Source of the DNA: Gammaproteobacteria bacterium
GTDB taxonomy: Bacteria; Pseudomonadota; Gammaproteobacteria; SZUA-229
Reading direction: 5' to 3'
Assembly: GCA_030148865.1 (NCBI GenBank)
Contig: JASBSR010000040.1
Span: 62,518 to 126,517, forward strand
DNA: 64,000 nt
Part shown: piece after piece, positions 628 to 33,367 of the stretch
How positions within the stretch are numbered: the first letter of the stretch is position 1
Layout: every line of letters begins with the position of its first letter
The notes under the pieces: generated by a model
What the model saw: the letters and a program-made list of their open reading frames with translations, nothing else
What the model was told of the DNA's origin: nothing
Databases searched by the model: none
Program-made: the position numbers and the translations under genes

Positions 628-639
628 GGGGAAGAGATA

Positions 640-1044: not shown

Positions 1045-1053
1045 GAGATAATT

Positions 1054-1356: not shown

Positions 1357-1393
1357 GATATTTTAATTTTATTCTCAACGAGGAGCGCACATC

Positions 1394-1729: not shown

Positions 1730-1744
1730 GCTCTGGTACGACCC

Positions 1745-1775
1745 GAAGGGGGTCACAAGACCCCCTTCTTCATTT
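1745..1775 (+). terminator. GC-rich hairpin followed by a short T tract after dsrC; possible partial terminator or attenuator
   Basis: gaagggggtc-acaa-gacccccttc (10-bp perfect stem) followed by ttcattt, 16 nt after the dsrC stop. Confidence 0.4.
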
Positions 1776-1809
1776 AACACTTAGTAATAGCAGGCGAGAC
1801 ACCTAAACA

Positions 1810-2586
1810 ATGACCGCTTTAAGTATTATTTACGTCATACTTTTTTATCTGGCGATGATCACCCTGGTGGTAGGCGTGGCCAATAAAATTGTGCAATACG
1901 TGCGTGTGCCTGCTCCGCTGAAAATTGCGGTAACTCCTGCGCCGATTACTCGCGGCGGTGTGGTTTATAGATTCTTTACCGAGGTTGTTTTTTTCAACAG
2001 CCTGTTTCGCGCAACCAAGTGGACCTGGATATTCGGCTGGATATTCCACCTTTCCCTGTTGCTCGCGTTTTTCCGTCACCTGCGTTATGTGATTAGCCCG
2101 AATTCATTTCTGTGGCCGCTGGTGAATCTGGAAGTGGTGCAAAGCTTTGGCAAATACGCCGGCTTTGCCATGCTGTTTGGCCTGACCGGATTATTTGTGC
2201 GTCGCATCTTTGTCGACCGCGTACGTTATATTTCTTCCCCTTCTGATTATTTGATGCTGCTGCTGATTTTTGCGATTGCTGGCACCGGTCTGCTAATGAG
2301 TTTCTCAAAAGAAGTGGGCATTAGCGGAGTTGACATTATTCAGCTAAAAGCTTTTGTCATGGGCCTGTTCCTGCTTGACTGGCAGAGCCTGCCTGGCGAT
2401 ATTATTCTACTGGTGCACCTGACCATGGTGCTATTCCTGATGATGATTTTCCCCGTGAGCAAACTGTTACACGCGCCGGGTTTGTTCTTTGCTCCGACTC
2501 GCTACCAGGTCGACAATCCGCGTGAAAAGCGCCATTTGTCTGATTGGGGTGCAGCGATCGAAGCTAAAGACGGCAGAAATGCTTAA
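1810..2586 (+). CDS. dsrM: DsrM, membrane dihaem b subunit (NarI-like) of the DsrMKJOP complex
   Basis: 258 aa polytopic membrane protein with NarI-like helices, immediately upstream of dsrK. Confidence 0.8.
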   Translation: MTALSIIYVILFYLAMITLVVGVANKIVQYVRVPAPLKIAVTPAPITRGGVVYRFFTEVVFFNSLFRATKWTWIFGWIFHLSLLLAFFRHLRYVISPNSFLWPLVNLEVVQSFGKYAGFAMLFGLTGLFVRRIFVDRVRYISSPSDYLMLLLIFAIAGTGLLMSFSKEVGISGVDIIQLKAFVMGLFLLDWQSLPGDIILLVHLTMVLFLMMIFPVSKLLHAPGLFFAPTRYQVDNPREKRHLSDWGAAIEAKDGRNA

Positions 2587-2645
2587 AAACACAGATTGGC
2601 CCATTAAAAAAGTTACAACCGGTACTGTGAAACAAGGTTAAAAAC

Positions 2646-4181
2646 ATGGCAGACTTCGAAACACCGCAAACCCACGAGTTCCCCGTCATCCCTACGGTGA
2701 TGGAAGGTGCTATGGCTCATAGTTCGCCGTTTGTCGCGAGCGCTGAGTTTCAGAGCGAGATGGGATTCCCCGGTGATGGCGGACTGATCGAAGGCTGGAA
2801 AGATAGATTTCTCGATCTGCTTGACGACAAACTCGGCAAATACCGTTCGCTGCAGGTGTTTATGGACACTTGCGTGAAATGCGGCGCCTGTACTGACAAA
2901 TGCCATTATTTCCTCGGCACCAGCGATCCAAAAAATATGCCGGTGGCACGTCAGGATCTACTGCGTAAGGTATATCGCCGCTATCACACATTTGCAGGAA
3001 AATACTTCCCGAAACTGGTGGGCGCGATTGATCTGACTGAAGACGTCGTCAACGATATGTATTCGTACTATCATCAGTGCTCTGAATGCCGCCGTTGCGC
3101 GGTGTTCTGCCCGTTCGGTATCGATACTGCTGAAGTCACCATGGCCGCGCGCGATATTCTGGCGCAGGTGGGCCTGGGTCAGAAATACTCGAATCAGATT
3201 ATTCCCAAAGTCCACAAGATTGGTAACAACCTCGGCCTGCCTGAGAAAGCACTCGCGGATACTCTGGAAGGTCTGGAAGAAGATGTGGAAGACGATACCG
3301 GCGTTAAGGTTCGTTTCCCGCTGGACGAAAAAGGTGCTGACATTTTACTGGTCACGCCGTCTGCTGACTTCTTTGCTGAGCCCCACGTCGATGGCCTCAT
3401 GGGTTACGGCAAAGTATTTCATGCTGCCGGCGTGAGCTGGACCTTGAGCTCAAAAGCCTCAGAAGCCGCCAACTTTGGTTTATTCATTGGTAGCTACGAA
3501 CAAATGCGTCAGGTATCACTGCGTATTCGTGATGCCGCCAAAGAGCTTGGCGTTAAGCGCATTGTGTTTGGTGAGTGCGGCCACGCCTGGCGCGTTGCCT
3601 ACAATCACCTGAACACACTGGCCGGCCCATGGGATTTTCTTGATCAGAGCTATCCGATTCCACAGCACATACTGGAATTCACCAAGGATTGCTTAGACCG
3701 CGGTATTTTAAATATCGACAAGTCACAAAATGATGATATGACGCTGACTTTCCACGATTCGTGTAACATCGCCCGTGCCTCACGCATTGGTGCAGAACCA
3801 GGCAGCCAGTTCACCACGCCGCGCGAAGTGATTAAAGCGGTGTGTAATAATTTTTACGATATGTCGGCAGACACCATCCACGATGCCACCTTCTGCTGTG
3901 GCGGCGGCGGCGGTCTGCTCACCGATGATCTGATGGAGCTGCGCGTAAAAGGCGCACTGCCAAGAATGGAATCGCTGAAGAATGTCATCGCCGACAAAGG
4001 CGTAACACACATGGCCGCGATTTGCGCCATCTGTAAATCACAGTTTACAAAAGTCCTGCCCTACTACGGCATGACCATGGATCAGATAGTGAGTGTTCAC
4101 CAGCTGGTTGGCAATGCCATCATTCTTGATGGTCAGGGCGACGACGCGGATGAATCTGACGACGCAGACGAAGCTGCATAA
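2646..4181 (+). CDS. dsrK: DsrK, HdrD-like iron-sulfur catalytic subunit
   Basis: 511 aa. Ferredoxin motifs CVKCGACTDKC and CSECRRCAVFCP, plus an HdrD-type CCG region (FCCGGGGG). Confidence 0.85.
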   Translation: MADFETPQTHEFPVIPTVMEGAMAHSSPFVASAEFQSEMGFPGDGGLIEGWKDRFLDLLDDKLGKYRSLQVFMDTCVKCGACTDKCHYFLGTSDPKNMPVARQDLLRKVYRRYHTFAGKYFPKLVGAIDLTEDVVNDMYSYYHQCSECRRCAVFCPFGIDTAEVTMAARDILAQVGLGQKYSNQIIPKVHKIGNNLGLPEKALADTLEGLEEDVEDDTGVKVRFPLDEKGADILLVTPSADFFAEPHVDGLMGYGKVFHAAGVSWTLSSKASEAANFGLFIGSYEQMRQVSLRIRDAAKELGVKRIVFGECGHAWRVAYNHLNTLAGPWDFLDQSYPIPQHILEFTKDCLDRGILNIDKSQNDDMTLTFHDSCNIARASRIGAEPGSQFTTPREVIKAVCNNFYDMSADTIHDATFCCGGGGGLLTDDLMELRVKGALPRMESLKNVIADKGVTHMAAICAICKSQFTKVLPYYGMTMDQIVSVHQLVGNAIILDGQGDDADESDDADEAA

Positions 4182-4240
4182 CACTAAAATTAGTTTTAAC
4201 GCATTACGCTTATAACGGTTGAAGCAACAGGAGAACTGGC

Positions 4241-6208
4241 ATGGCCACTTCCAAAGAAAACATGGTAAACGAAAAGTTAACCTTCAGAAAATTTGAAGAC
4301 GGTGATCAAAACTGGGGTGCACTCACTAATAAAATCTTCAAAGAAGATACTTCATATAAGTGTCCGACTTACGTTCACCGTACGCCACCTTGCCAGGGCA
4401 GCTGCCCTTCGGGTGAAGATATTCGCGGCTGGCTGGATATCGTTCGCGGTATCGAATCGCCATCAGAAGGCACCAGCATGAGCGAATACGCTTTTCGGCG
4501 CCTGACTGATGCCAACCCGTTTCCTTCTATGATGGGTCGCGTATGCCCAGCACCCTGTCAGGATGGCTGTAATCGTAATAATGTCGAGGACTTCGTTGGC
4601 ATTAATGCAGTTGAGCAGTATATCGGTGATACCGCATTCTCTAACAACTATAAATTCGATAACACCGCACCCATGACCGGCAAAAAAGTTGCCATCATCG
4701 GTGGTGGTCCTGCGGGCCTGGCGGCTGCCTATCAGTTGCGCCGTAAAGGTATCGCTTCAACCGTATTTGACGATCACTCAGAACTCGGTGGTATGTTCAA
4801 ATACGGTATTCCTGGTTATCGTACCCCACGCGACTACCTGAACAACGAAATTCAGCGCATCGTCGACATGGGCGAAATTGAAATCAAACTCAACACCCGC
4901 GTCGGTAAAGACGTCGCCGTCGACGCGCTTGAAAAAGAATACGACGCTGTGCTCTGGGCGATTGGCTGTAAAAGCGGTCGCGCACTGCCCGTGCCCAATG
5001 CCGATGCTCCTAACTGTGTATCGGGTGTTGCCTTCCTCGAAGCCTTCAATAAAGGCACGATGCAGGTCACTGCAGAAAAAGTGGTGTGTGTCGGCGGCGG
5101 TGATACTTCGATCGACGTGGTTTCAGTTGCACGTCGTCTGGGTAAAATCAACAACATCGACGACAGCAATCGTCCTGAGCAGGTCATCGGCGGTTATGTA
5201 GCTCACGACTCAGCTATGACAGCTTCACGTGAAGGCGCACAAGTGACCCTGACGTCATTGTTCCCGCGCGATCAAATGACTGCTGCTGAGCACGAAGTGG
5301 AAGATGCCACTGTCGAAGGCGTAGATATTCACACTGGAGTAATGCCGCTCGAGGTGATTGTCGATGCCAATGGCCGCGCCACCGCACTGAGAATGTGCAA
5401 GTGTGAACTGGTTGATGGCCGTCCCAGCAAAATCGAAGGCACTGAGTACGACATCGAAGCTGACCTGATCGTATCTGCGATTGGCCAGAGCGGTGACATG
5501 ACCGGCCTGGAAGACTTCGACAATGGTCGTGGTTTAATGGATGCCGACAGCTTCTACCGGGTACCGGGTAAAGACGGTCATTTCGTGTGTGGCGACATCG
5601 TCCGTCCTCACCTGCTGACTACTGCTATCGGTCAGGCTTCAATTGTTTCTGACACCATCGAAGCTTACTTCAAAGAAACTGATCTGCGTAAACGTCCTAA
5701 AGTTGACGTGCATCACTTCAAACTGATAAACAAACTGGATGAAGCCGGGCTGCATATTGATTCCTACAGTGCTGACAAATACCAGGATGATGCCCAACGC
5801 GGTACTGATCATCAGAAATATGCGATCCATAACTATGAGGACCGCTCAGCTCAGGAAATTATTTCTTCTGATCAGCTGTTCCTGGGTCATTTTTCATACA
5901 CTCCCCGTATCCAGCGCAAAACCATTGTGCCGACTTCAGAAGAAGTCCTGGGCCACTTTGCGGAACGCCAGATTGGTTACAGCGAAGAAGAAGCCGTTGC
6001 CGAAGCCGAACGTTGCATGAGTTGTGGTATGTGTTTCGAATGTGACAACTGTGTCATCTTCTGCCCTCAGGATGCGGTATTCCGCGTTAAGAAGAGCGAA
6101 AGCACCACTGGCCGTTATGTTGATACCGACTACAGCAAGTGTATTGGTTGCCATATCTGTGCTGATGTATGCCCCACTGGCTACATTGACATGGCGCTGG
6201 GCGAGTAA
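4241..6208 (+). CDS. dsrL: DsrL, NAD(P)H:acceptor oxidoreductase (glutamate synthase small-subunit-like)
   Basis: 655 aa. N-terminal FeS Cys cluster, dinucleotide-binding AIIGGGPAGLAAAY, C-terminal ferredoxin domain CMSCGMCFECDNCVIFCP and CIGCHICADVCP. Confidence 0.8.
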   Translation: MATSKENMVNEKLTFRKFEDGDQNWGALTNKIFKEDTSYKCPTYVHRTPPCQGSCPSGEDIRGWLDIVRGIESPSEGTSMSEYAFRRLTDANPFPSMMGRVCPAPCQDGCNRNNVEDFVGINAVEQYIGDTAFSNNYKFDNTAPMTGKKVAIIGGGPAGLAAAYQLRRKGIASTVFDDHSELGGMFKYGIPGYRTPRDYLNNEIQRIVDMGEIEIKLNTRVGKDVAVDALEKEYDAVLWAIGCKSGRALPVPNADAPNCVSGVAFLEAFNKGTMQVTAEKVVCVGGGDTSIDVVSVARRLGKINNIDDSNRPEQVIGGYVAHDSAMTASREGAQVTLTSLFPRDQMTAAEHEVEDATVEGVDIHTGVMPLEVIVDANGRATALRMCKCELVDGRPSKIEGTEYDIEADLIVSAIGQSGDMTGLEDFDNGRGLMDADSFYRVPGKDGHFVCGDIVRPHLLTTAIGQASIVSDTIEAYFKETDLRKRPKVDVHHFKLINKLDEAGLHIDSYSADKYQDDAQRGTDHQKYAIHNYEDRSAQEIISSDQLFLGHFSYTPRIQRKTIVPTSEEVLGHFAERQIGYSEEEAVAEAERCMSCGMCFECDNCVIFCPQDAVFRVKKSESTTGRYVDTDYSKCIGCHICADVCPTGYIDMALGE

Positions 6209-6244
6209 TTCGCAAATCACTAGGCGAGCAATAAGGCGAGAATT

Positions 6245-6709
6245 ATGACCAGGAGTTTTCTGCAACTCACCATCTTTTGCGGCATGTTTCTGCTAATGCT
6301 TTCTGGTAAAGCATTGGCAGAAACGCCGTTTCCAAAGATACATGAACCTGAAGGCGAAGGTGTCAAGTGCGTACAGCCGGAAGATGAAATTCGCAGAAAT
6401 CATATGAAATATATTCTGCACCAGCGTGATAAAACCGTGCACGAAGGTATCCGCACTGAGCGCTACAGCCTGGCAAAATGTATCGACTGCCACGTACAGC
6501 CAGATGAAAACGGCAAGATCGTCGATCACACCAGTGACGAGCATTTCTGTAATGCCTGTCATCAGTATGCCGCAGTGCAAATCGACTGTTTTGAATGCCA
6601 CGCTGATCGCCCGCAAAAATTCATCAAACGTAGCACTGACAAGCAGGCATTGAATCAACAGATGCAGGACATGCTGGCTAAAAAAACCAGCGATGGGAGC
6701 AATGAATAA
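6245..6709 (+). CDS. dsrJ: DsrJ, periplasmic trihaem cytochrome c
   Basis: 154 aa, signal peptide, three CxxCH motifs (CIDCH, CNACH, CFECH). Confidence 0.8.
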   Translation: MTRSFLQLTIFCGMFLLMLSGKALAETPFPKIHEPEGEGVKCVQPEDEIRRNHMKYILHQRDKTVHEGIRTERYSLAKCIDCHVQPDENGKIVDHTSDEHFCNACHQYAAVQIDCFECHADRPQKFIKRSTDKQALNQQMQDMLAKKTSDGSNE

Positions 6710-7452
6710 TGAGCGATTGCGTGAATAATTCAAGACGTGACTTTATTTCGAAAGTCGCACTCGCCGGCACTGTTACCCTCGCCCCCGGACTATTGCTGCA
6801 CACCGCCCAGGCCAAGCCTGATGACCAGGCAGTTTCCAGTAAAACCCGCTGGGGCATACTGATCGACACCAACAAATGCGGCAAAGGCTGCACTTCCTGT
6901 GTTGATGCCTGTAATGAAGAATTCGCCCTCATCGGCAGCATGCCGAATTCTGCGGATACTCAAAAAACTCAATATATTCGCAAGGTCACGCTCAAAGAAA
7001 AAACCACCGGTCATGAACAATCATTACCGTTATTATGCCAGCACTGCGAAAACCCACCGTGTGTTGATGTCTGCCCAACGGGTGCATCGTTTAAACGCGC
7101 TGACGGTATCGTACTGGTCGACAAGCATATCTGTATCGGCTGCCGCTATTGCATGATGGCCTGCCCATACAAAGCACGCTCTTTTGTGCATGAAGAAATC
7201 GTCAACCAGACACTGGCTGCACCACGCGGCAAAGGCACGGTTGAGTCCTGCACCATGTGCGTACATCGCGTTGACAAAGACCGTAACCCTGCCTGTGTCG
7301 AAGCCTGTAATGCAGACAATCACAACGCCATGATCTTTGGCGATATGAATGATCCTGAGAGTGCGCTTTCGGTAGAACTTAAAAACAATGGCGGCAAGCA
7401 AATCCGCGCCGATCTCGGCCTCAACACTGGTGTGCGCTACCAGGGCATCTAG
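6709..7452 (+). CDS. dsrO: DsrO, periplasmic Tat-targeted 4Fe-4S ferredoxin subunit
   Basis: 247 aa. Tat-like N-terminus (SRRDFISKVALAG) and multiple CxxCxxCxxxCP motifs. Start overlaps the dsrJ stop. Confidence 0.8.
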   Translation: MSDCVNNSRRDFISKVALAGTVTLAPGLLLHTAQAKPDDQAVSSKTRWGILIDTNKCGKGCTSCVDACNEEFALIGSMPNSADTQKTQYIRKVTLKEKTTGHEQSLPLLCQHCENPPCVDVCPTGASFKRADGIVLVDKHICIGCRYCMMACPYKARSFVHEEIVNQTLAAPRGKGTVESCTMCVHRVDKDRNPACVEACNADNHNAMIFGDMNDPESALSVELKNNGGKQIRADLGLNTGVRYQGI

Positions 7453-7473
7453 TTTTAAGAGAGAACGTTTTAG

Positions 7474-8676
7474 ATGAAAAAATTCGAATACTCGCAAATT
7501 AATGGCAAGAGCCTGGCGTACTTCGGTCTGCTCGCGGGCCTGGGCTTAATCGCAGTGATTGGTGTGCTTGCCAGCTGGTATATGGAACATAACGGCCACT
7601 ACGTGACTGGCATGAACAACCAGGTGATCTGGGGTACACCGCATATATTTGCCGTATTTTTGATCGTCGCGGCGTCAGGCGCGCTGAATGTGGCTTCGAT
7701 TGCATCTGTGTTCAGCAAAAAAATGTACGAACCGATGGCACGCTTATCCGCGCTGCTGGCCATCGCCCTGCTCGCCGGCGGTCTGGTCATTCTGCTGCTC
7801 GACCTCGGTCGTCCGGACAGACTGATCGTTGCCATGACCTATTACAATTTCAAATCCATCTTTGCCTGGAATATTATTCTGTATACCGGTTTCTTCGCCA
7901 TAGTCGGTACCTACATCTGGATGATGATGGATCACAATATGTACAAATACAAAAAAACCGTCGGCCTGGCGGCTTTTATCTGGCGACTGACACTCACCAC
8001 CGGTACCGGTTCAATTTTTGGTTTTCTGGTCGCGCGTTCCGCCTACGATGCCGCCCTGCTGGCACCGATGTTCATCATCATGTCATTTTCCTTCGGGCTG
8101 GCGATATTTATTCTGGTACTGATGGCCGCCTACAACTGGACAGGACGTGAGCTCGGTGACGTGGTGATTGCCCGCCTGCGTAAATTACTCGGCGTGTTCG
8201 TTGCCGCCGTGCTCTATTTTGTCATTGTTTACCACCTGACCAATCTCTACATTACCCAGCGTCATGGTGTTGAAGAGTTCATTCTATCTTCCGGCGGTAT
8301 TTACACCCAGCTGTTCTGGATCGGACAGGTGCTGATCGGTGGCCTGATTCCGCTGGTGCTGATTTATGCACCCGGTGTCAGCCAGTGTCGCAAGACCCTG
8401 GCCTTTGTCTGCACACTGGTCATTCTCGGCGGTCTCGCCCAGTTGTACGTCCTTATCATCGGTGGTCAGGCCTTCCCGCTGGATATATTCCCCGGCTACG
8501 AGGTCAGTAGTTCATTCTATGACGGTGTCATCGCCAGTTACTCACCTTCGTTACCCGAAGTCCTGCTCGGTCTCGGTGGCATCGCCGTCGCCCTGCTACT
8601 GGTCACCTTTGCGCTCAAAGTGCTGCGTTTTCTGCCACCGTCACTGGCTGATTCAGTCGCGGACCCGCACGCGTAG
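7474..8676 (+). CDS. dsrP: DsrP, NrfD/PsrC-like integral membrane quinone-interacting subunit
   Basis: 400 aa, about 10 TM helices, NrfD-like; follows dsrO. Confidence 0.8.
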   Translation: MKKFEYSQINGKSLAYFGLLAGLGLIAVIGVLASWYMEHNGHYVTGMNNQVIWGTPHIFAVFLIVAASGALNVASIASVFSKKMYEPMARLSALLAIALLAGGLVILLLDLGRPDRLIVAMTYYNFKSIFAWNIILYTGFFAIVGTYIWMMMDHNMYKYKKTVGLAAFIWRLTLTTGTGSIFGFLVARSAYDAALLAPMFIIMSFSFGLAIFILVLMAAYNWTGRELGDVVIARLRKLLGVFVAAVLYFVIVYHLTNLYITQRHGVEEFILSSGGIYTQLFWIGQVLIGGLIPLVLIYAPGVSQCRKTLAFVCTLVILGGLAQLYVLIIGGQAFPLDIFPGYEVSSSFYDGVIASYSPSLPEVLLGLGGIAVALLLVTFALKVLRFLPPSLADSVADPHA

Positions 8677-8688
8677 AAGCAATTAATA

Positions 8689-8799
8689 GTGAATAATGAA
8701 AGGCGACGCTTGCCAATAAACTATGGGCTTGCTTCAGGTCTGGTGTTTTCATTATTCATTGTTCATTATTCATTGCTCTTTTGAGCTGCGGCGCAGCTC
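8689..8799 (+). promoter_or_regulatory. Structured dsrP-dsrN intergenic region: inverted repeat, 14-bp tandem repeat and an RBS-occluding palindrome
   Basis: gtgaataatgaaagg (8689-8703) is the inverse of ttttcattattcatt (8746 onwards). ttcattattcattg occurs twice in tandem (8748-8761 and 8762-8775). Perfect palindrome gagctgcg-gc-gcagctc (8783-8799) abuts the dsrN ATG at 8800. Confidence 0.4.
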
Positions 8800-10188
8800 A
8801 TGTCTCGTCTGTTCATTTCTGCTGGCCACAAGTCTTCTGGCAAAACCACGGTCAGCATCGGCCTGTGCGCCGCCCTGACCGCTGCTGGTAACAGCGTACA
8901 GACCTTCAAAAAAGGCCCTGACTACATCGATCCACACTGGTTAGCCAAAGCCAGTGAGCGCCCGTGTTTTAATCTCGACTTTTACACCATGACACACGAT
9001 GAGATCAAAACCGCGTTCGCCCAGCACTCGGCAACGGCTGATATCAGTCTGATTGAAGGCAACAAGGGGCTCTACGACGGTCTTGATCTCGACGGCAGTA
9101 ACAGCAATGCCGCGCTGGCAATATTGCTGCATACGCCAGTGATACTGGTGCTGGACGCGCGCGGCATGACACGGGGCATCGCTCCGCTGATTCTCGGCTA
9201 CCAGGCATTCGATGCCAATATCAAGATTCGCGGCGTCATTCTCAACCAGCTCGGCGGGTCACGTCATGAAGCCAAACTGCGCAACGTAATCGAACACTAC
9301 ACCGATGTCAGCGTGGTCGGTGCTATTCATAAGGATGCGCGTTTCGATATCGACGAACGTCACCTTGGCCTGGTACCCAGTCACGAAGACCCGGCCTCGG
9401 CAACTAAAATTACTCTGTTGCGCGACGCCATCAGTGAACAGGTGGATCTCGACATGCTCCGGCACATCGCCAACACCGCGCCCGCGCTACCGAACACGAC
9501 CCCTGCCTCGCCGGCGTTTAGCAAAACCCGGCAGGATTTACGCATCGGTGTCGCGCGTAATGCAGCGTTCGGCTTTTATTACCCCGATGATCTGTTCGCG
9601 CTGGAACATGCTGGCGCCGAGCTTGTCGAAATTGACCCAATACGCGACCGCCAGCTACCCGAACTCGATGGCCTGATCATCGGCGGCGGCTTCCCGGAAA
9701 CCCACATGAGCGAATTATCGGCCAACCAGAGTATGCGTAGCGCCATCCACGAGGCGATTGGTGCCGGTCTGCCGGTCTATGCCGAGTGTGGTGGCCTGAT
9801 GTATCTGGCGCGATCGATCGAATGGCAGGGCGAAAACCACGCCATGGTGGGCAGTATCGCCGGGGACATCATCATGGAAGCTCGACCTCAGGGACGCGGC
9901 TACGTCCAGCTCAGCGAAAATACCGTCAGTCTCTGGCCAAACCCGACAAAGTCACAGATCTCGGCGCATGAGTTTCATTACTCGCGTTTTAAAAATCTGG
10001 ACAAAGATGCTAGATTTGCATTCTCCGTCAAACGCGGTACTGGTATCGATGGCAAGCATGATGGCTATATGTATAAGAATCTGCTGGCCTGTTACAGTCA
10101 CCAGCGCAGCACTGGCAGCAATCCATGGACACAACGCTTTGTTGATTTCGTAAGGCAACACAAACACAACACAACTACAGAAACATGA
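8800..10188 (+). CDS. dsrN: DsrN, sirohaem amidase (cobyrinic acid a,c-diamide synthase homolog)
   Basis: 462 aa. CbiA/CobB-like P-loop (GHKSSGKTT) and C-terminal glutamine amidotransferase domain (AECGGLMYL). Confidence 0.8.
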   Translation: MSRLFISAGHKSSGKTTVSIGLCAALTAAGNSVQTFKKGPDYIDPHWLAKASERPCFNLDFYTMTHDEIKTAFAQHSATADISLIEGNKGLYDGLDLDGSNSNAALAILLHTPVILVLDARGMTRGIAPLILGYQAFDANIKIRGVILNQLGGSRHEAKLRNVIEHYTDVSVVGAIHKDARFDIDERHLGLVPSHEDPASATKITLLRDAISEQVDLDMLRHIANTAPALPNTTPASPAFSKTRQDLRIGVARNAAFGFYYPDDLFALEHAGAELVEIDPIRDRQLPELDGLIIGGGFPETHMSELSANQSMRSAIHEAIGAGLPVYAECGGLMYLARSIEWQGENHAMVGSIAGDIIMEARPQGRGYVQLSENTVSLWPNPTKSQISAHEFHYSRFKNLDKDARFAFSVKRGTGIDGKHDGYMYKNLLACYSHQRSTGSNPWTQRFVDFVRQHKHNTTTET

Positions 10189-10499
10189 TTACCATAACAC
10201 CCAGCGCAGCGAGTCAGATTAAACTCTCTGCCCAGCAGAGCAAATCAGAAGGCATGCCACTGCGCATCGCCGCGACCCGAAACAGTGATAACAGCATTCA
10301 TTACGGCATGGGCTTCGATGACAGCAAAGAAGATGATATCAGCGTCACCTGTGAAGACATCGAATTAATCGTCTCGCCGGCGAGCGCTATTTTATTAAAA
10401 GATACGCAACTGGATTTCGTCGAACTCGAGCCGGGGAAATTTCAGTTCATTTTTCTCAACCCAGGTGACCCCAACTACAAACCCCCGGTTGAGCAATAG
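10185..10499 (+). CDS. dsrR: DsrR, IscA/HesB-like protein
   Basis: 104 aa with an A-type carrier fold but lacking the canonical Cys triad, as described for DsrR. Overlaps the dsrN stop. Confidence 0.6.
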   Translation: MITITPSAASQIKLSAQQSKSEGMPLRIAATRNSDNSIHYGMGFDDSKEDDISVTCEDIELIVSPASAILLKDTQLDFVELEPGKFQFIFLNPGDPNYKPPVEQ

Positions 10500-10522
10500 T
10501 CGACTCATCTGAGAGCACGATC

Positions 10523-11701
10523 ATGGGCAAGACGACCAAGGCCAAGGCCAGCGCGAAAATTTCGAGCCCGATCATCGAGTGGAGCCGAGACTCAATTATC
10601 ATTCTGTACGAAGTCATCAGTCTGATTAATTCGGCTGAAAATCAGCAGGAGCTGTTCAATTATTTTCTCAGGCATCTCACCAACCGGCTAAAAGCAAAAG
10701 CCGCCACTCTGCGGCTGATCACCAATGATGACTGGATGGAGCTGGTGGGTAGTTACAAACTTGATGACCCGAGCATCAGCAAAATTCAGCAAACCGCGAT
10801 TGAAGCGCCATTATTCAGCCGCAGTAGTGAACCGATCAATTTAGTCCGGGTAGCTCCCGCCGACGCGCTGCTGGCGGATTCAAGTGACCTGATGATTACC
10901 GTTCCGGTACGCCATCTGGTGCACACTCTGGGCGCGATCAATATTGTCTTCGCGCCCGGCGCTATCGACCTCGACAATGAACTGGCTTCGTTGCTGTTCA
11001 GTGCCGGCCACCATCTGGCGCTGGCGATTGAAAAATACCGCCTGGAAAACCTGACCCGACAAAAACTGGTGCAGGAAGAACGCAATATGCTGGCCAGCGA
11101 GCTACACGACTCACTGGCACAAACCCTGGCCTCATTACGCTTTCAGGTGCGGGTGCTGGATCAGTCCCTGCAGCCCTCGGGTGACTATATGGCAATTAAT
11201 AGCATCGAACAGGTGGAACACGGCCTTGATGAAGCCTATACCGATCTGCGCGAACTCATCGCCCACTGTCGCGAACCCATCGAGCAGCAGGGCCTGCTGC
11301 CCTCGATCGAGCGCGTGGTGGCCAAATTCCGCGAAGAAACCGGGATTCATATCCTGTTACAATGCGAGCATCAGCTGCCGGATATCCCCGTGATAATGGA
11401 AATGAATGTCTACCGCATCGTACAGGAATCGCTGACCAATATTAAAAAACACGCGAATGCCAAAATCGTGCGTATATTACTCGACTGCGATAACGAAGGC
11501 CGCTATCGTGTCCTGGTCGAAAACGATGGCATTGGCTTTGATAAAAAAGCCATTCAGAGCCACGCCGGTCAACATCTTGGCCTGACTATTATGCAGGAGC
11601 GCGCGCACCATTTGGGCGGTAAACTACGCATCGAGAGCGAGCCGGACGAAGGCACGCGGATCGAACTCAAGTTCCAGTACCAGAGAGAGCAGGCAATCTG
11701 A
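10523..11701 (+). CDS. Cytoplasmic sensor histidine kinase, NarX/HisKA_3 type, with a putative N-terminal GAF-like sensor domain
   Basis: 392 aa with no TM segments. H-box ERNMLASELHDSLAQTLASL and HATPase_c region (GLTIMQERAHHLGGKLRIESEPDEGTRIEL). Begins 24 nt after dsrR. Confidence 0.7.
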   Translation: MGKTTKAKASAKISSPIIEWSRDSIIILYEVISLINSAENQQELFNYFLRHLTNRLKAKAATLRLITNDDWMELVGSYKLDDPSISKIQQTAIEAPLFSRSSEPINLVRVAPADALLADSSDLMITVPVRHLVHTLGAINIVFAPGAIDLDNELASLLFSAGHHLALAIEKYRLENLTRQKLVQEERNMLASELHDSLAQTLASLRFQVRVLDQSLQPSGDYMAINSIEQVEHGLDEAYTDLRELIAHCREPIEQQGLLPSIERVVAKFREETGIHILLQCEHQLPDIPVIMEMNVYRIVQESLTNIKKHANAKIVRILLDCDNEGRYRVLVENDGIGFDKKAIQSHAGQHLGLTIMQERAHHLGGKLRIESEPDEGTRIELKFQYQREQAI

Positions 11702-11706
11702 CCATC

Positions 11707-12360
11707 ATGCGAGTCATTATAATCGACGATCACGCCCTGTTCCGGGTCGGCCTCAAAGGTCTGCTCGAACAACGCAACATCGAAGTGATCGGGGTCGCAG
11801 CCGACGGCAATGCCGGCATTAAGCTCGCCGAACTTCTCAGCCCCGATATTATTCTGCTCGACCTGCGCATGCCCGGCATCGGTGGCCTCGAAGTCCTGAA
11901 AACACTGCGCGGACACAATCCGACCATCCCCGTGGTCATGCTCACCACCAGCAATGAAGAATCCGACCTGATTAAATCCTTACGCCTTGGCGCACAGGGC
12001 TATTTGTTAAAAGATATGGAGCCTGATGAACTGGTGAGCGCGCTGCGTGATATCGAAAAAGGCAAGAATGTGGTCGCCCACGACCTCACCGATGCGCTGG
12101 CACGCATGGTTCAGGGTGAAACCACGGTCGATGACGATGCCGGCCCCTTCGCCAGCCTGACTCCGCGTGAGCGCGAAATCCTCTGCCTGCTCGCCGATGG
12201 CCAAAGCAATAAACTGATCGCGCGTAACCTCGGCATCTCCGATGGCACGGTCAAACTTCACGTCAAAGCGATTTTGCGCAAACTCGGGATTCATTCCCGG
12301 GTTGAAGCCGCCGTCATCGCTGTCGAACAGGGCCTGCGTAAAGCTGATACCAGTACCTGA
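11707..12360 (+). CDS. NarL/LuxR-family response regulator
   Basis: 217 aa. REC domain (MRVIIIDDHALFRVGLKGLL...DLRMPG) plus C-terminal LuxR HTH (LTPREREILCLLADGQSNKLIARNLGISDGTVKLH). Start 6 nt after the kinase. Confidence 0.85.
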   Translation: MRVIIIDDHALFRVGLKGLLEQRNIEVIGVAADGNAGIKLAELLSPDIILLDLRMPGIGGLEVLKTLRGHNPTIPVVMLTTSNEESDLIKSLRLGAQGYLLKDMEPDELVSALRDIEKGKNVVAHDLTDALARMVQGETTVDDDAGPFASLTPREREILCLLADGQSNKLIARNLGISDGTVKLHVKAILRKLGIHSRVEAAVIAVEQGLRKADTST

Positions 12361-12370
12361 GCTATCACTC

Positions 12371-12850
12371 ATGAAAACTTTTAAACAGATTGTCGAAGAC
12401 GCACGTCAGCAGGTTAGCGAGCTCATGCCCTGGGATGTGGATGAACTCTGCCGCAGTCACCCTGACACGCTAGTACTCGATATTCGAGAGGAATGCGAAT
12501 TTGCCAGTTTCCATATCGCGAACTCCATGCTGGTGCCTCGCGGCATCCTGGAAACTGCCTGTGAAGCTGAATACGAAGACGCTGTGCCCGAATTAATCAC
12601 TGCCCGTGAACGTGAAATCGTCATCATTTGCCGATCAGGAAATCGCAGCATACTGGCCGCCCAGACCCTGCAGACACTGGGCTACAAAAACGTCAAATCG
12701 ATGCAAACCGGTTTACGCGGCTGGAATGATTATGAATTGCCGCTGATCAACGCCAAGCGCGAAGTGCTCGACCCGGAACAGGTGGATCTGCTACTGGCCA
12801 AAGGTTTTAGTTCTGCAGTGTTGCAAACTGATCGCCGGCTCCAGTCGTAG
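12371..12850 (+). CDS. Single-domain rhodanese-like sulfurtransferase
   Basis: 159 aa from the ATG at 12371; the ORF track begins at an earlier in-frame codon. Active-site loop CRSGNRS in a rhodanese fold. 10 nt after the response regulator. Confidence 0.7.
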   Translation: MKTFKQIVEDARQQVSELMPWDVDELCRSHPDTLVLDIREECEFASFHIANSMLVPRGILETACEAEYEDAVPELITAREREIVIICRSGNRSILAAQTLQTLGYKNVKSMQTGLRGWNDYELPLINAKREVLDPEQVDLLLAKGFSSAVLQTDRRLQS

Positions 12851-12853
12851 ATC

Positions 12854-13225
12854 TCAGTCGTAACGTCTATGGTCTTTACGCCGACGTCCGGCCTGCTGTG
12901 AAATCACCCCGGAAATTTGCTCCAGCCCCGAAATTTCCACGGTATCATAAAGATCGTTCAATGGCTGAAGATAATATTTGTCGTCAACCATACGCAGCTG
13001 ACGAAAAATATATTCGTCATTATGGGTGGCAATGACATAACAGCCATCGCGAATCGCGCCCGCAGGGTCGATGACAATGACGCTACCCTCAGCAAATTCA
13101 GGCAGCATAGAATCCCCTAACACCCGTAAGGCGTAAGGTTCTGATGCACTGCAGCCACCTGTTTCTGACATACCAACTCCTGATTTTAATTCGCCAATTA
13201 TACCCGCCCGCTGGAATGCGACCAA
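12854..13225 (-). CDS. S24-family LexA/UmuD-like peptidase domain protein
   Basis: 123 aa with RVLGDSMLPEFAEGSVIVIDP (catalytic Ser region), a downstream Lys and an Ala-Gly near the N-terminus. No HTH domain. Confidence 0.55.
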   Translation of the reverse strand: MVAFQRAGIIGELKSGVGMSETGGCSASEPYALRVLGDSMLPEFAEGSVIVIDPAGAIRDGCYVIATHNDEYIFRQLRMVDDKYYLQPLNDLYDTVEISGLEQISGVISQQAGRRRKDHRRYD

Positions 13226-14343: not shown

Positions 14344-15603
14344 ATGAGTAAAAAAAACGCGTTTTACGCGCAATCCGGCGGTGTTACCGCAGTTATTAAT
14401 TCATCTGCCTGCGGCGTTATCGAAACTGCACGCAAGCACAAAGACAAAATCGGCAAAGTCTACGCCGGTCGCAACGGTATTATCGGCGCTCTCACCGAAG
14501 ATTTGATCGATACCAACAAGGAATCCAAATCAGCGATTGCTGCTTTGCGTTACACGCCTTCCGGCGCTTTTGGTTCCTGCCGTTTCAAAATGAAAAGTCT
14601 TGAAGCCAACAAACTTCAGTACGAGCGTTTGATCGAAGTTTTCAAAGCTCACAACATCGGTTATTTCTTTTACAATGGCGGCGGTGACTCGGCTGATACC
14701 TGTCTGAAAGTATCACAGATCGGTGAAAAAATGGGTTACCCAATCACTGCCGTACACGTGCCTAAAACGGTCGACAATGATTTACCAATTACCGACAACT
14801 GCCCCGGTTTTGGCTCTGTCGCCAAATACATTGCTGTGTCCACCATGGAAGCCAGCTTCGACGTAGCATCGATGTGCGCCACATCGACCAAAGTATTCGT
14901 CCTGGAAGTGATGGGCCGTCACGCCGGCTGGATTGCCGCTGCTGGTGCCATGGCTTCGACCAAAGAACACGAAATTCCTATCGTTGTCCTGTTCCCGGAA
15001 GTTGAGTTCAACCAGGAAAAATTCCTCAAAACCGTCGATGACAAAGTTAAAAAATTTGGTTACTGCTCAGTCGTCGTTTCTGAAGGTGTGCACTGGCCGG
15101 ATGGCAAATTTCTCGCCGAAACCGGTTTGAAAGATGCCTTCGGACACAGCCAGCTGGGCGGTGCTGCACCTGTGGTTGCCAACATGATTCAGGAAGGCCT
15201 GGGCTATAAATATCACTGGGGCGTGGCCGACTATATGCAGCGTGCTGCACGCCATATCGCGTCCAAGTCTGACGTGGATCAGGCTTATGCCACTGGTAAA
15301 GCCGCGGTTGAATACGCGCTCAAAGGCCATAACTCAGTCATGCCTGCGATCAAACGCGTTAGCAATAAGCCGTACAAGTGGAAAATCGAAATGGCACCGT
15401 TAAGCAAAATCGCCAACGTCGAGAAAATGATGCCAAAAAACTTCATTTCTAAAGACGGTTTCAGCATCACACCAAAATGTCGTGAATATCTGGCGCCGCT
15501 GATGAAAGGCGAAGACTATCCTCCATATAAAGATGGTCTGCCAAAATATGTCACACTGAAGAAAGTGGCCGTTGCTAAAAAACTGGCGCCTTTTGAAATT
15601 TAG
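14344..15603 (+). CDS. pfp: Pyrophosphate-dependent 6-phosphofructokinase
   Basis: 419 aa PFK-A family (GGGDSADT, MGRHAGW). PPi-type length and architecture. Strong RBS CAGGGGAA. Confidence 0.8.
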   Translation: MSKKNAFYAQSGGVTAVINSSACGVIETARKHKDKIGKVYAGRNGIIGALTEDLIDTNKESKSAIAALRYTPSGAFGSCRFKMKSLEANKLQYERLIEVFKAHNIGYFFYNGGGDSADTCLKVSQIGEKMGYPITAVHVPKTVDNDLPITDNCPGFGSVAKYIAVSTMEASFDVASMCATSTKVFVLEVMGRHAGWIAAAGAMASTKEHEIPIVVLFPEVEFNQEKFLKTVDDKVKKFGYCSVVVSEGVHWPDGKFLAETGLKDAFGHSQLGGAAPVVANMIQEGLGYKYHWGVADYMQRAARHIASKSDVDQAYATGKAAVEYALKGHNSVMPAIKRVSNKPYKWKIEMAPLSKIANVEKMMPKNFISKDGFSITPKCREYLAPLMKGEDYPPYKDGLPKYVTLKKVAVAKKLAPFEI

Positions 15604-15701
15604 ACTGAGGTCAAGCTCGATAAGACACGCAAACTCCTTACCATGCCTTGAGCGTTGTAGCTATAACCGCAACGTTGCAGGCATGGCGCTGGGGGAAGTG
15701 A

Positions 15702-16520
<819 letters not shown>

Positions 16521-16533
16521 TTTGTTTGAACTG

Positions 16534-16560
16534 AAGCCCTGTATATGCAGGGCTTTTTTG
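16534..16560 (+). terminator. Rho-independent terminator after adk
   Basis: aagccctg-tatatg-cagggctt followed by ttttttg. Confidence 0.6.
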
Positions 16561-16590
16561 TACTTTCACAATAATAAGCGAGATAGAATA

Positions 16591-18609
16591 ATGTCTAACG
16601 AACTTGTCTTTGCATTAGTCTGCGCGCTAGTCGGCATCGGCTATGGCGTAGTGTCAATTTTTAGCATCATGAGCAAGAACCCTGGCAATGCAGAAATGGT
16701 ACGCATTCAGGGGGCTATTCAGGAAGGCGCAATAGCTTATCTGAAACGCCAGTACACCACAATCGCCATGGTCGGTGTAGTGATCTTTGCTGTTATCTGG
16801 TTTCAGCTGAATGCGCACACGGCGATTGGCTTTGCCATTGGTGCCATTTTTTCCGGCCTTGCCGGTTACATCGGCATGCACGTTTCAGTGCGCGCTAACT
16901 CACGTACCGCACAGGCAGCAAATGAAGGCATCAACGCCGCATTCAAGGTCGCGTTTCGTGGCGGTGCCATCACCGGCATGTTAGTCGTCGGTCTTGGACT
17001 GCTCGGAGTCGCTGGCTATTACGCCTATCTTTTGCAAAGCGGTGCAGAAGATCCTTTGCACGCATTAATCGGCATGGCCTTTGGCGGTTCGCTGATTTCA
17101 ATTTTTGCGCGTCTCGGCGGCGGTATCTTTACCAAAGGCGCGGACGTCGGTGCTGACATCGTCGGTAAAGTTGAAGCCGGCATTCCCGAAGACGACCCGC
17201 GTAACCCGGCAGTGATCGCGGATAACGTTGGTGACAATGTCGGCGACTGTGCCGGCATGGCGGCTGACCTGTTTGAAACTTACGCGGTGACGATTATCGC
17301 CACCATGCTGCTCGCCAGCCTGCTGGTAGAGGGTGATGCAGGTCAGGTCATCCTCTACCCACTGGTGCTGGGTGGCGCCTCGATTATTGCTTCAATCATC
17401 GGTACCTTTTTCGTTAGCATCAAACCCGGTCAGAAAATTATGAACGCGCTGTATCGCGGCCTGATTATTTCCGGGGTGCTGGCGGCGATTGCGTTTTATC
17501 CCATCACCAGCCAGATGATCGGCGATCATCTGGTGTTTGCAGGTAAAGTCATCTCCGCGATGGATGTTTATTTCAGCGCACTCATCGGTCTCGCGCTCAC
17601 CGCAGCCATGGTGGTAATTACCGAGTATTACACCGCGACTGAATACGGCCCGGTGCGTAGAATCGCCGCCGCCTCCACAACAGGCGATGGCACCAATGTG
17701 ATCGCCGGTCTTGGTGTCTCGATGAAATCGACTGCACTGCCCGTGCTCTCGGTATGCGCCTCGATCTGGGGTGCCTACGAGCTCGCCGGCCTGTTCGGCA
17801 TTGCGATTGCTGCCACTGCCATGCTGTCGATGACCGGCATGATCGTCGCGCTCGATGCCTATGGTCCGATCACTGACAATGCCGGCGGGATTGCTGAAAT
17901 GGCCGAGCTGCCGGAAGACATTCGCAACATCACCGACCCGCTGGACGCTGTCGGCAACACCACCAAAGCTGTCACCAAAGGTTACGCGATTGGTTCAGCC
18001 GGTCTTGCCACGCTGGTGCTGTTTGCAGACTACACCCACAATCTTGGCGGTGACGTGATTTTCAAGCTGTCTGATCACCGTGTCATCATCGGCCTGTTCC
18101 TCGGCGGTATGGTGCCGTATCTGTTCGGTGCCATGGCGATGGAAGCGGTAGGTCGTGCTGCTGGCGGTATTGTCAACGAAGTGCGCCGTCAGTTCCGCGA
18201 GATGCCAGGCATCATGGATAAGAGCCAGAAACCGGATTATTCCAGCGCCGTCGATATGCTGACCCGTGCTGCCATCAAGGAAATGATTCTGCCTTCATTG
18301 CTGCCGATCGCAGTGCCGGTGGCGGTGGGTCTGTTGCTGGGCAAAGAAGCGCTCGGTGGCCTGCTTATCGGTACCATTATCACCGGCCTGTTCGTGGCCA
18401 TTTCCATGACCACCGGTGGTGGTGCCTGGGATAACGCCAAAAAATATATCGAGGACGGCAATCACGGCGGCAAGGGCTCGGATGCGCACAAGGCCGCAAT
18501 CACTGGCGACACGGTTGGCGACCCTTATAAGGATACCGCGGGGCCAGCGATCAACCCACTGATCAAAATTATCAATATTGTTGCCCTGCTGATGATTCCG
18601 CTGCTGTAA
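16591..18609 (+). CDS. hppA: Membrane-bound proton-translocating inorganic pyrophosphatase
   Basis: About 672 aa from the ATG at 16591 (downstream of the adk terminator). Polytopic protein with H+-PPase signature motifs ([28 protein letters not shown]). Confidence 0.9.
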
Positions 18610-19176: not shown

Positions 19177-20376
19177 ATGATTAAACCTCATGGTTCTGAC
19201 ACTCTGAACCCTTTGTTTGTATACGATGCAGCCAAAAACGAAGCGCTGCAAAAAGCAGCCGCGGACCTGCCCGCGATCATCGTCAGCTCGGCCGCTGCCG
19301 CCAATGCAGTGATGCTCGGTGCCGGCTATTTCAACCCGCTGACCGGTTACATGAGCAAGGCCGATGCCCTGTCAGTCGCCAAAGACATGAAAACCACTGC
19401 CGGCCTTTTCTGGCCGACCCCGGTTTTAAATCTGGTGGAAAATGCTGGCAATATCAAGGCTGGCGACCGGATTGCACTGAAAGACCCCAATGTATCTGGT
19501 CATCCCGTGCTGGCGATCATGGATGTTGAGGCGGTCGAAAGCTTCAGCGATGAAGACATGGCCATGATGACCGAAAAAGTGTACGCACCTGCCGCTGGCG
19601 AAGCTCACCCCGGCGTGGATGCGTTCAACTCACAGGGCAAAGTTTGCCTGTCTGGCCCCATCCAGGTGCTGAACTTCTCTTATTTCCAGAGCGAGTTTCC
19701 AGATACCTTCCGCACGGCGGTCGAAATCCGCAATGAAATCGCCGAACGCGGCTGGAAAAAAATTGTTGCTTTCCAGACCCGTAACCCGATGCATCTGGCC
19801 CACGAAGAACTCTGCCACATGGCCATGGATCGTTTAGGCTGCGATGGCCTGGTAATCCACATGCTGCTCGGCAAACTGAAAAAAGGTGACATCCCGGCTC
19901 CAGTTCGCGATGCTGCGATTCGCAAAATGGTGGAGCTGTATTTCCCGGAAAACAGCGCCATGGTCACCGGCTACGGTTTCGACATGCTCTACGCCGGCCC
20001 ACGCGAAGCCGTGCTGCACGCGGTGTTCCGCCAGAATATGGGCGCCACCCACTTCATCATCGGTCGCGACCACGCCGGTGTTGGTGATCACTACGGTGCC
20101 TTCGATGCCCAGACCATTTTCGACAACGAAGTGCCCAAAGACGCTCTCGACATCGAAATCTTCAGGGCTGACCACACAGCCTGGTCGAAGAAACTGAACA
20201 AGGTGGTGATGATGTGCGAAGCGCCGGATCACCAGAAAGAAGATTTCATTTTATTGTCCGGCACCAAAGTCCGCGAAATGCTGGGCAATGGCGAAGCACC
20301 ACCAAAAGAATTCTCGCGCCCTGAAGTCGCGAAAATCCTGATCGACTACTACCAGAGCGAAGCAGCTAATGCCTGA
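19177..20376 (+). CDS. sat: Sulfate adenylyltransferase (ATP sulfurylase)
   Basis: 399 aa with QTRNPMHLAHEEL and GRDHAGVG motifs of homo-oligomeric ATP sulfurylase. Confidence 0.9.
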   Translation: MIKPHGSDTLNPLFVYDAAKNEALQKAAADLPAIIVSSAAAANAVMLGAGYFNPLTGYMSKADALSVAKDMKTTAGLFWPTPVLNLVENAGNIKAGDRIALKDPNVSGHPVLAIMDVEAVESFSDEDMAMMTEKVYAPAAGEAHPGVDAFNSQGKVCLSGPIQVLNFSYFQSEFPDTFRTAVEIRNEIAERGWKKIVAFQTRNPMHLAHEELCHMAMDRLGCDGLVIHMLLGKLKKGDIPAPVRDAAIRKMVELYFPENSAMVTGYGFDMLYAGPREAVLHAVFRQNMGATHFIIGRDHAGVGDHYGAFDAQTIFDNEVPKDALDIEIFRADHTAWSKKLNKVVMMCEAPDHQKEDFILLSGTKVREMLGNGEAPPKEFSRPEVAKILIDYYQSEAANA

Positions 20377-30539: not shown

Positions 30540-30553
30540 AGAGGATCCTGATC

Positions 30554-33274: not shown

Positions 33275-33367
33275 AACCGGGTTGTACAGGTGAATGATGG
33301 GGGAAAACAAACAACGACACACCGAATGCCATAACAACTTATGCAACCGTTCACGTAAAAGATAAAA

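Follow-up and report, generated by a model that had tools for sequence, protein, structure and literature searches.

The DNA described here, 64,000 nucleotides (nt) of contig JASBSR010000040.1 (positions 62,518 to 126,517) from a gammaproteobacterium of the SZUA-229 lineage and called the window below, carries a reverse-dsr operon in which dsrR is followed at very short distance by genes for a soluble sensor histidine kinase, a NarL-type response regulator and a single-domain rhodanese (Table 1). We lean, by a little, towards the view that this trio is a feedback regulator of dsr transcription, a tail of the dsr operon that would act on the operon's own promoter. In Allochromatium vinosum the operon order is dsrABEFHCMKLJOPNRS. 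In the window, dsrEFH, dsrL with dsrC, dsrMKJOP, dsrN and dsrR make up the gene set of a reverse-dsr operon by NCBIfam and Pfam matches. An identical DsrE is encoded on no other public contig than the window's own, where dsrB and a partial dsrA lie directly upstream. Since the contig begins inside dsrA, with dsrAB to the left of the window, the operon promoter is outside the window.

The three genes placed after dsrR in a first-pass annotation of the window are all present, on the + strand and at the positions given there. The gaps, reported as 24, 6 and 10 nt, are 23 nt between dsrR and the kinase gene, 5 nt between kinase and regulator and 10 nt between regulator and rhodanese, so that the last was right and the first two were each one base off. 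For the rhodanese, the mechanically called open reading frame (ORF) runs from 12242, still inside the regulator gene, and the ATG at 12371 is the more sensible start. A promoter or terminator separating dsrR from the kinase gene was looked for in a consensus scan of positions 8500-14400, and neither a promoter-like site on the + strand nor a terminator-like site was found at this junction. With these short gaps, and with comparably short dsrR-kinase spacings in the 17 loci of the soluble-kinase clade described below, the earlier suggestion that kinase, regulator and rhodanese are co-transcribed as the tail of the dsr operon is plausible.

Table 1. Features of the window (positions from its first nucleotide; aa, amino acids)
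Feature	Position	Strand	Basis or remark
dsrEFHCMKLJOPNR, reverse-dsr operon body	235..10499	+	NCBIfam and Pfam match for each gene
dsrR-kinase spacer, 23 nt, weak GAGAG Shine-Dalgarno-like motif	10500..10522	+	sequence
Soluble sensor histidine kinase, 392 aa: N-terminal GAF, HisKA_3, HATPase_c	10523..11701	+	Pfam, hydropathy, alignment
GAF sensor domain, about residues 20-181	10580..11065	+	lacks the CxCG...C triad of membrane-anchored relatives
HisKA_3 domain, H-box ELHDSLAQ, phospho-acceptor His195 (HDxxxQ), Cys249 ending helix 2	11078..11278	+	Pfam, invariant columns
HATPase_c catalytic domain, N, G1 and G2 boxes conserved	11405..11680	+	Pfam, alignment
NarL-type response regulator, 217 aa: receiver (residues 3-113), GerE/LuxR helix-turn-helix (150-205)	11707..12360	+	Pfam, NCBIfam
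Single-domain rhodanese, 159 aa, catalytic Cys87 (codon 12629-12631), loop CRSGNRS	12371..12850	+	Pfam
S24 (LexA/UmuD-type) gene, peptidase domain only, convergent	12854..13225	-	Pfam Peptidase_S24, E 6e-18
ORF of 133 aa	13838..14239	+	no Pfam or NCBIfam match
Phosphofructokinase-like (419 aa), adenylate kinase, membrane H+-pyrophosphatase (695 aa)	14344..18609	+	assigned by eye
sat (ATP sulfurylase)	19177..20376
Extracytoplasmic function (ECF)-type sigma factor (183 aa), then a 247-aa protein, possibly an anti-sigma factor	22127..23424	-	Sigma70_r2 and r4_2; no Pfam match for the 247-aa protein
Respiratory cluster	29027..48414

The kinase had been described as a HisKA_3 protein without transmembrane segments and with a GAF-like sensor at its N-terminus, a description with which Pfam, hydropathy and the GAF fold of the sensor region all agree. 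The HisKA_3 match covers residues 186-252 (E 8e-14) and the HATPase_c match residues 295-386 (E 4e-15); across a family alignment of 20 sequences, neither the motif ELHDSLAQ nor the N, G1 or G2 box varies, and the best solved-structure matches of the catalytic domain are VraS and DesK. Against Escherichia coli NarX the kinase is 29% identical over residues 134-384. Its highest 19-residue hydropathy, 1.48, falls within a predicted β-strand of the sensor domain, compared with 2.2-2.3 in membrane-anchored relatives, and the protein has neither a HAMP linker nor a periplasmic P-box but opens directly with the GAF domain. A single GAF domain fits within the first 182 residues, which contain no cysteine, and some relatives score directly with Pfam GAF_2. 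Among curated NCBIfam families it scores 165.9 bits with NarQ (cut-off 553) and 114.9 bits with NarX (cut-off 578), its C-terminal half alone being matched.

Full-length ORFs of this kinase family fall into three groups. The window's clade (17 loci) has soluble proteins of 376-398 aa; kinases of 469-472 aa (9 loci) have two N-terminal transmembrane helices; and those of about 550 aa have a tight transmembrane hairpin with almost no periplasmic loop, followed by a linker, and align with the HAMP region of NarX. The alignment of one member of the last group with E. coli NarX (26% identity, E 3e-37) extends from the second transmembrane helix (TM2) and HAMP, across the central module, as far as the C-terminus, which marks the family as NarX-like without the periplasmic sensor. 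The soluble kinase is a derived, truncated branch of this membrane-anchored NarX-like family, and the two forms together offer a natural experiment on where the signal enters. The long forms (50/79) combine a CxCG...C GAF triad with Phe at the position of Cys249. In the soluble and intermediate forms (29/79) the triad has been lost together with about 10 residues, and Cys249 is present instead, in exactly the triad-less members. Cysteine-based sensing as a universal feature of the family was rejected, Cys249 and the GAF triad being mutually exclusive and clade-specific.

The regulator was correctly called a LuxR/NarL response regulator. It has receiver (Response_reg, E 2.5e-30) and GerE (E 1.8e-22) domains and aligns over its whole length with the structure of E. 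coli NarL (1A04, E 8e-51), the motif around the phospho-acceptor Asp being LLDLRMPG compared with LLDLNMPG in NarL. NarL is also its best NCBIfam model, at 227 bits, below the equivalog cut-off of 250. The recognition helix, TVKLHVKAILRKL, is identical or differs by one residue in 87 of 90 orthologues, including those encoded away from dsr. Base contacts in NarL are made by Lys188, Val189 and Lys192 (PMC10853779); at these positions the window protein has K, L and K (KLHVK vs KVHVK), with Leu in place of Val189.

The third protein likewise proves to be the single-domain rhodanese that had been proposed. The Pfam match (E 3.5e-14) and the active-site loop CRSGNRS at residues 87-93 predict a rhodanese fold whose catalytic Cys opens a six-residue loop, as is usual for the class. 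Of 57 orthologues, 41 keep the loop, and conservation reaches at least 90% at both C64 and C87. Solved relatives include 6mxv and 1qxn, the nearest being a two-domain rhodanese-like protein and the polysulfide-sulfur transferase Sud of Wolinella (1qxn).

The place of the trio right after dsrR is the one that dsrS takes in operons of the A. vinosum type (dsr...NRS), and the claim that the window has these genes ‘instead of dsrS’ holds. At a related metagenomic locus from the comparison below, L099, dsrR is followed by a 375-aa ORF (17823-18950) without any family match, whose relatives in metagenome-assembled genomes (MAGs) of Sedimenticolaceae and Chromatiaceae are named ‘sulfur reduction protein DsrS’ by NCBI; there is no curated DsrS family in NCBIfam. 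With this DsrS homologue as tblastn query, neither the window nor any of the kinase-bearing loci gives a match, and blastp against the kinase gives chance segments alone (E above 1). The possibility that the kinase is a diverged DsrS was rejected on this lack of similarity: DsrS of the A. vinosum type is a protein of about 375 aa with no recognised domains and a sequence unrelated to that of the kinase. In lineages with dsrS, such as the Chromatiaceae, the kinase-regulator-rhodanese trio lies elsewhere in the genome. DsrS has itself been implicated in dsr expression and has its own promoter (PMC3368242).

The arrangement is widespread across sulfur-oxidising Gammaproteobacteria, a point that goes beyond the first-pass annotation. 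A kinase profile scan with one genome per species gave at least 600 matching stretches, from which 80 loci were taken, all from Gammaproteobacteria (Thiotrichaceae, Thiohalomonadaceae, Ectothiorhodospiraceae, Arenicellales, Acidiferrobacterales and others) or unclassified MAGs, with 41-82% identity in the kinase. When the window proteins were mapped onto these fetched loci, 63 of the 71 informative ones had dsrR no more than 1 kb upstream of the kinase, and three more had it within 2.5 kb, with a gene for a pyridine nucleotide-disulfide oxidoreductase in between. The regulator directly follows the kinase in 76/78 loci and the rhodanese directly follows the regulator in 38/67. The inserted oxidoreductase is of class I and about 480-500 aa long (L040 7895-9397, L071 8018-9463, L074 7969-9402).

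Since these loci were chosen by the kinase, a second sample was chosen by DsrK similarity, independently of it. Sixteen loci of this kind extend 1.5 kb or more past dsrR. In 10 of them the kinase comes next, and in one it lies 2 kb further on; in L131 it is relocated, and four have no kinase, one of these having dsrS. The relocation in L131 has moved kinase, regulator and rhodanese together to a position divergent from dsrA, with the kinase ORF starting about 450 bp upstream of that gene.

Cultured purple sulfur bacteria of the genera Thiocystis, Thiocapsa, Thiorhodococcus, Marichromatium and Thioflavicoccus, as well as Allochromatium palmeri, have orthologues 65-75% identical to the kinase of L075, a Chromatiaceae MAG locus. 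The complete genomes of Thioflavicoccus mobilis and Thiocapsa bogorovii encode the trio as a tight stand-alone group far from dsr, so that the three genes behave as one unit. By these gene neighbourhoods they form a single module, which adjoins the dsr operon in most cases but not in all. At the loci where the kinase lies away from dsr (L059, L072, L073, L075, L078), the neighbours checked were ABC transporter, HlyD, NnrS and FGE-sulfatase genes, with no sulfur genes among them. The pair Alvin_0025/0026 of A. vinosum is unlikely to be orthologous, judged by numbering and context, as the regulator (Alvin_0025, family not specified) is numbered before the kinase and the pair lies in a cytochrome cluster. 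The regulator is missing after the kinase in L013 and L014. In L014 (11485-14180) the place of regulator and rhodanese is taken by a gene resembling amino-acid transporters and by a transposase-like ORF of 356 aa, which points to a rearrangement that orphaned the kinase.

The S24 gene at the end of the trio is convergent with it, its stop codon lying 3 nt from that of the rhodanese gene. The GDSM serine motif is kept, and by eye an Arg occupies the place of the LexA/UmuD catalytic Lys (FRQL vs VKRL/VKKL). The gene adjoins the module in many dsr-linked loci and is near stand-alone modules in L165, L075 and L078. Whether it belongs to the module is uncertain.

A candidate operator for the regulator was found at the dsrA promoters of relatives. 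In the 400 nt upstream of dsrA from 28 loci, of which the eight closest align in short blocks alone, a palindrome TATCCC-N4-GGGATA is present in 24 (at least 10 of 12 core matches). Written as heptamers, TATCCCn-nn-nGGGATA, it has the 7-2-7 layout of NarL sites (TACYYMT-NN-AKRRGTA), with T for C at position 3 throughout. A second element, CCCAWGGGTAGG, begins 28 nt downstream of the palindrome centre and contains AWGGGTA, the complement of the NarL heptamer TACCCWT, and a -10-like hexamer (TAGACT, TAAACT, TAGAAT or TAAAAT) begins 64 or 65 nt downstream of the centre. The spacing of palindrome, second element and -10-like hexamer is fixed in some 20 loci that otherwise cannot be aligned in their flanks. 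Taken as a -10 element, the hexamer would put the centre of the palindrome at about -76.5 and that of the second element at about -44.5, beside a weak -35. This candidate arrangement matches the layout of the ogt promoter of E. coli, which NarL activates from -77.5 and -44.5 (PMC7419079). In L085, where the locus was annotated, no other transcription-factor gene lies beside dsrA.

A proximal sigma-70-like promoter (TTGAGA or TTGTTT, 17 nt, TAGAAT) is also conserved in the closest clade, L082-L095, at about -95 to -65 from the dsrA ATG. It lies downstream of the palindrome-dependent promoter and would give dsrA either two promoters or a long structured leader.

A weight matrix made from the 24 dsrA-promoter palindromes and scanned over the 2.05 Mb of fetched loci gave 29 matches of at least 16 bits. 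Of these, 25 are at dsrA promoters and are circular, since most of them trained the matrix. Three of the others lie in dsrR-kinase spacers (L027, L029, L041) and one before a small ORF in L131. In the three spacers, and more weakly in L045, the palindrome covers the -35 position of a promoter of the extended -10 kind (TGnTATAAT or TATCAT), some 70 nt ahead of the start codon of the kinase gene, a layout that would be expected for autoregulation. Before the small ORF of L131 (77 aa), the palindrome stands at a class-II-like distance from a promoter with TGnTATAAT. The window itself has no matrix match of at least 8 bits in its 64 kb, and so no site at sat, at its nap- or nir-like genes or at the module itself; the degenerate NarL 7-2-7 pattern with one mismatch allowed gives a single, chance-level match, after sat. 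The suggestion that a regulator site might be found upstream of sat was thus pursued with both the matrix and the 7-2-7 pattern and gained no support.

The mechanism that these features bring to mind is as follows. The cytoplasmic kinase would autophosphorylate at His195 in response to an intracellular signal, read by the GAF domain, by Cys249 or by both, and would pass the phosphate to the NarL-type regulator. A dimer of the phosphorylated regulator would bind the palindrome some 76 bp upstream of the dsrA transcription start, and probably also the single heptamer-like element at about -44, and so activate a sigma-70 promoter with a weak -35, giving more expression of dsr and of the module itself in a positive feedback. 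The idea of feedback on sulfur-oxidation genes, already put forward at first pass, draws comparative support from the linkage to dsr in many lineages, from the rearrangement that placed the module beside the dsrA promoter in L131 and from the NarL-like palindrome at fixed spacing.

Since the window kinase has no membrane or periplasmic part, its signal must be cytoplasmic. The rhodanese would most likely tie the system to the sulfane-sulfur pool, either through persulfidation of the kinase or through control over how much of the sensed sulfur species is present. A sulfane-sulfur or thiol-redox input involving the rhodanese is a possibility that we place well short of even; it is favoured because the rhodanese moves with the pair, because it adjoins the regulator in most informative loci of the triad-less clades and because there is a precedent in the NreBC system (PMC9918477). 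Just as possible is the binding of a small molecule, sulfite for example, by the GAF pocket. The bolder idea that the trio is the general switch of reverse-Dsr oxidation in Gammaproteobacteria, with the rhodanese persulfidating the kinase (at the GAF triad in membrane forms and at Cys249 in soluble ones) and the output reporting the sulfane-sulfur pool, an input that would be of a new kind for two-component systems, seems to us unlikely.

Several observations weigh against a feedback role of this kind. The window does not include a dsrA promoter, and the operator evidence comes from relatives, the closest being L082, whose DsrA is 97% identical. The total of palindromes away from dsrA is not above that in shuffled sequence, so that their placement alone is notable, and the three or four loci concerned are mutually related; most dsr-linked modules, and the stand-alone ones, have no palindrome upstream of their own kinase gene. 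The palindrome is also present in L099, of the dsrS type, and in L129, neither of which has an adjacent module, and a link there requires those genomes to encode the regulator at another place. Such cases could be reconciled along the lines of the stand-alone modules, a pattern shown for Chromatiaceae in general. On the input side, the family alignment shows no conserved residue pattern in the GAF pocket that points to a ligand. The split between triad and Cys249 tracks clade boundaries and may be merely phylogenetic, which makes it suggestive but no proof of a relocated thiol switch, and the rhodanese is missing beside the module in about 40% of loci.

The class of the two signalling proteins raises the alternative of a NarX-NarL-type nitrate/nitrite system for denitrification genes, whose place after dsrR would be incidental. 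NarQ, NarX and NarL are indeed the best curated-family matches, but every score is below its equivalog cut-off (166 vs 553 for the kinase, 227 vs 250 for the regulator). The alignment of the membrane-anchored relatives with E. coli NarX runs from TM2/HAMP to the C-terminus, yet their transmembrane hairpin has no periplasmic domain and the window kinase lacks transmembrane helices and P-box altogether. A NapC/NirT cytochrome, a periplasmic molybdopterin oxidoreductase and a cd1 nitrite reductase are encoded in the window 16-36 kb downstream of the module, but no site was found upstream of these nap- and nir-like genes, and the linkage that is maintained across lineages is with dsr and the rhodanese rather than with nar, nap or nir. 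We consider a nitrate system improbable. It is also rather unlikely, if less so, that the pair is a sulfur-related two-component system with other targets (sulfur-globule, sox, apr/sat or sulfur-relay genes) and that another factor binds the dsrA palindrome. DsrC of A. vinosum has reportedly been proposed to bind the dsrA promoter. The palindromes of L099 and L129, the stand-alone modules of Chromatiaceae far from dsr and the extra L131 palindrome before an unrelated ORF would all suit such a division of roles. However, the palindrome has the NarL 7-2-7 form at NarL-typical positions (PMC7419079), the regulator keeps the base-contacting lysines of NarL in a near-invariant recognition helix, the same palindrome lies over the kinase-gene promoter in one subclade, and the window has no site at sat or elsewhere.

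A further alternative concerns the rhodanese alone, which may be a metabolic sulfur carrier toward TusA, DsrEFH or DsrC that shares the transcript without taking part in signalling; this is compatible with a regulatory kinase-regulator pair, and we hold it to be possible, on the doubtful side. Rhodanese-TusA-DsrE2 relays that feed DsrEFH/DsrC are established in A. vinosum (PMC3397948, PMC8477390), and the catalytic loop CRSGNRS is conserved. The loci without an adjacent rhodanese indicate that signalling can run without an adjacent copy. Against a purely metabolic role, the rhodanese accompanies kinase and regulator when these are relocated (L131) or stand alone with overlapping or abutting genes (L163, L165), and it adjoins the regulator in most informative loci of the two triad-less clades. 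The exceptions in these clades are L013 and L014, where the regulator is missing too, and L016 and L018, both truncated.

By its domains the pair belongs with NarX/NarL, and by analogy it would work most like NreBC or DosS/T-DosR. It shares with the E. coli systems NarX-NarL and NarQ-NarP a HisKA_3 domain with HDxxxQ H-box, HATPase_c and, less clearly, a GAF-like central module, and with NarL the receiver and GerE domains, Lys188 and Lys192 and, in the candidate operator, the 7-2-7 form at ogt-like positions (PMC7419079; PMC10853779). Unlike NarX, the window kinase lacks P-box, transmembrane helices and HAMP, and its clade has no central cysteine cluster; the half-site here is TATCCC and not TACYYM, and the linkage is to dsr and a rhodanese and not to nitrate respiration.

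NreB is a kinase whose sensor is a PAS domain with an Fe-S cluster held by four cysteine ligands, whereas that of the window kinase is a cysteine-free GAF domain. In Bacillus licheniformis NreBC, a cytoplasmic HisKA_3/NarL-type pair, is co-transcribed in the yrkD...sqr-pdo cluster, senses sulfide and activates the cluster (PMC9918477). The likeness lies in a cytoplasmic HisKA_3-class kinase and a NarL-family regulator inside a sulfur-oxidation cluster; the differences are the Firmicute host, the use of the SQR/PDO pathway rather than reverse Dsr, and the absence of a dedicated rhodanese right after the regulator. DosS/DosT-DosR (DevS-DevR) of Mycobacterium likewise combines a soluble GAF-HisKA_3 kinase with a NarL/LuxR regulator in cytoplasmic redox or gas sensing, and DevS GAF-B and the ATP-binding domain of DosT are among the structural and sequence matches of the kinase. 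DosS and DosT differ in having tandem GAF domains, with haem in GAF-A, and another context; the window kinase has one GAF domain and no evidence for haem.

TspS-TspR in Acidithiobacillus is a two-component regulator of sulfur oxidation, and some of the regulators of this kind in Acidithiobacillus and Campylobacterota are sigma-54-dependent. RsrS-RsrR of Acidithiobacillus and SulRS of Campylobacterota are likewise two-component systems that lie beside the sulfur-oxidation clusters they regulate (PMC5093147, PMC6335251, PMC12936845), but they belong to other kinase and regulator families (OmpR-type), sense at the membrane or in the periplasm and serve Sox or tetrathionate intermediate (S4I) pathways, none of them reverse Dsr. 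The literature consulted describes regulators for sox, S4I and sqr/pdo and no kinase, regulator or rhodanese attached to dsr, even in large comparative studies of dsr clusters; its coverage was incomplete, and an earlier description is possible. The trio is a strong, hitherto undescribed candidate for the switch of dsr expression, widespread, NarXL-derived and equipped with a dedicated rhodanese.

Little is known of how sulfur oxidisers turn on reverse Dsr, and the module supplies a candidate regulator together with a candidate operator at defined positions. Its presence in cultured organisms (Thiocapsa, Thioflavicoccus, Marichromatium, Allochromatium palmeri) makes the question directly testable. 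The module is also common in environmental sulfur oxidisers and in MAGs labelled Thiotrichaceae, and could aid the reading of dsr expression in metatranscriptomes.

Some features of the surrounding DNA deserve mention. The respiratory cluster of the window encodes a NapC/NirT cytochrome, a cytochrome c, a 906-aa periplasmic molybdopterin oxidoreductase with ferredoxin-like partners, MoaA, the cd1 nitrite reductase NirS, two cytochrome d1-domain proteins (NirF/NirN-like) and a radical-SAM protein; this gene content suggests that sulfur oxidation is coupled with the respiration of nitrate or nitrite in this organism. The order phosphofructokinase-like gene, adenylate kinase, pyrophosphatase is kept after the dsr region in L001, L003, L006, L010 and L060, among others, and the 133-aa ORF lies between slyD-like and phosphofructokinase-like genes in several relatives, with 48-59% identity. 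Thiohalomonadaceae-type loci have 1.2-3.7 kb extra between dsrP and dsrN that is unmatched by window proteins (for example L030 6274-7545, L027 6263-7584, L039 4046-7722). The dsr cluster is also accompanied by a conserved group of genes, seen in L085 (1316-4690) and L131 (17829-21183), for a TauD-like dioxygenase, a protein with a Pfam ‘Cas6’ match (PF09559, E 4e-63), a DsrC paralogue, a small protein (about 76 aa), whose ORF in L131 is the one preceded by the palindrome, and a 2-oxoglutarate (2OG)-Fe(II) oxygenase. Many loci have this group upstream of dsrA, whereas in L131 it is found downstream of dsrR.

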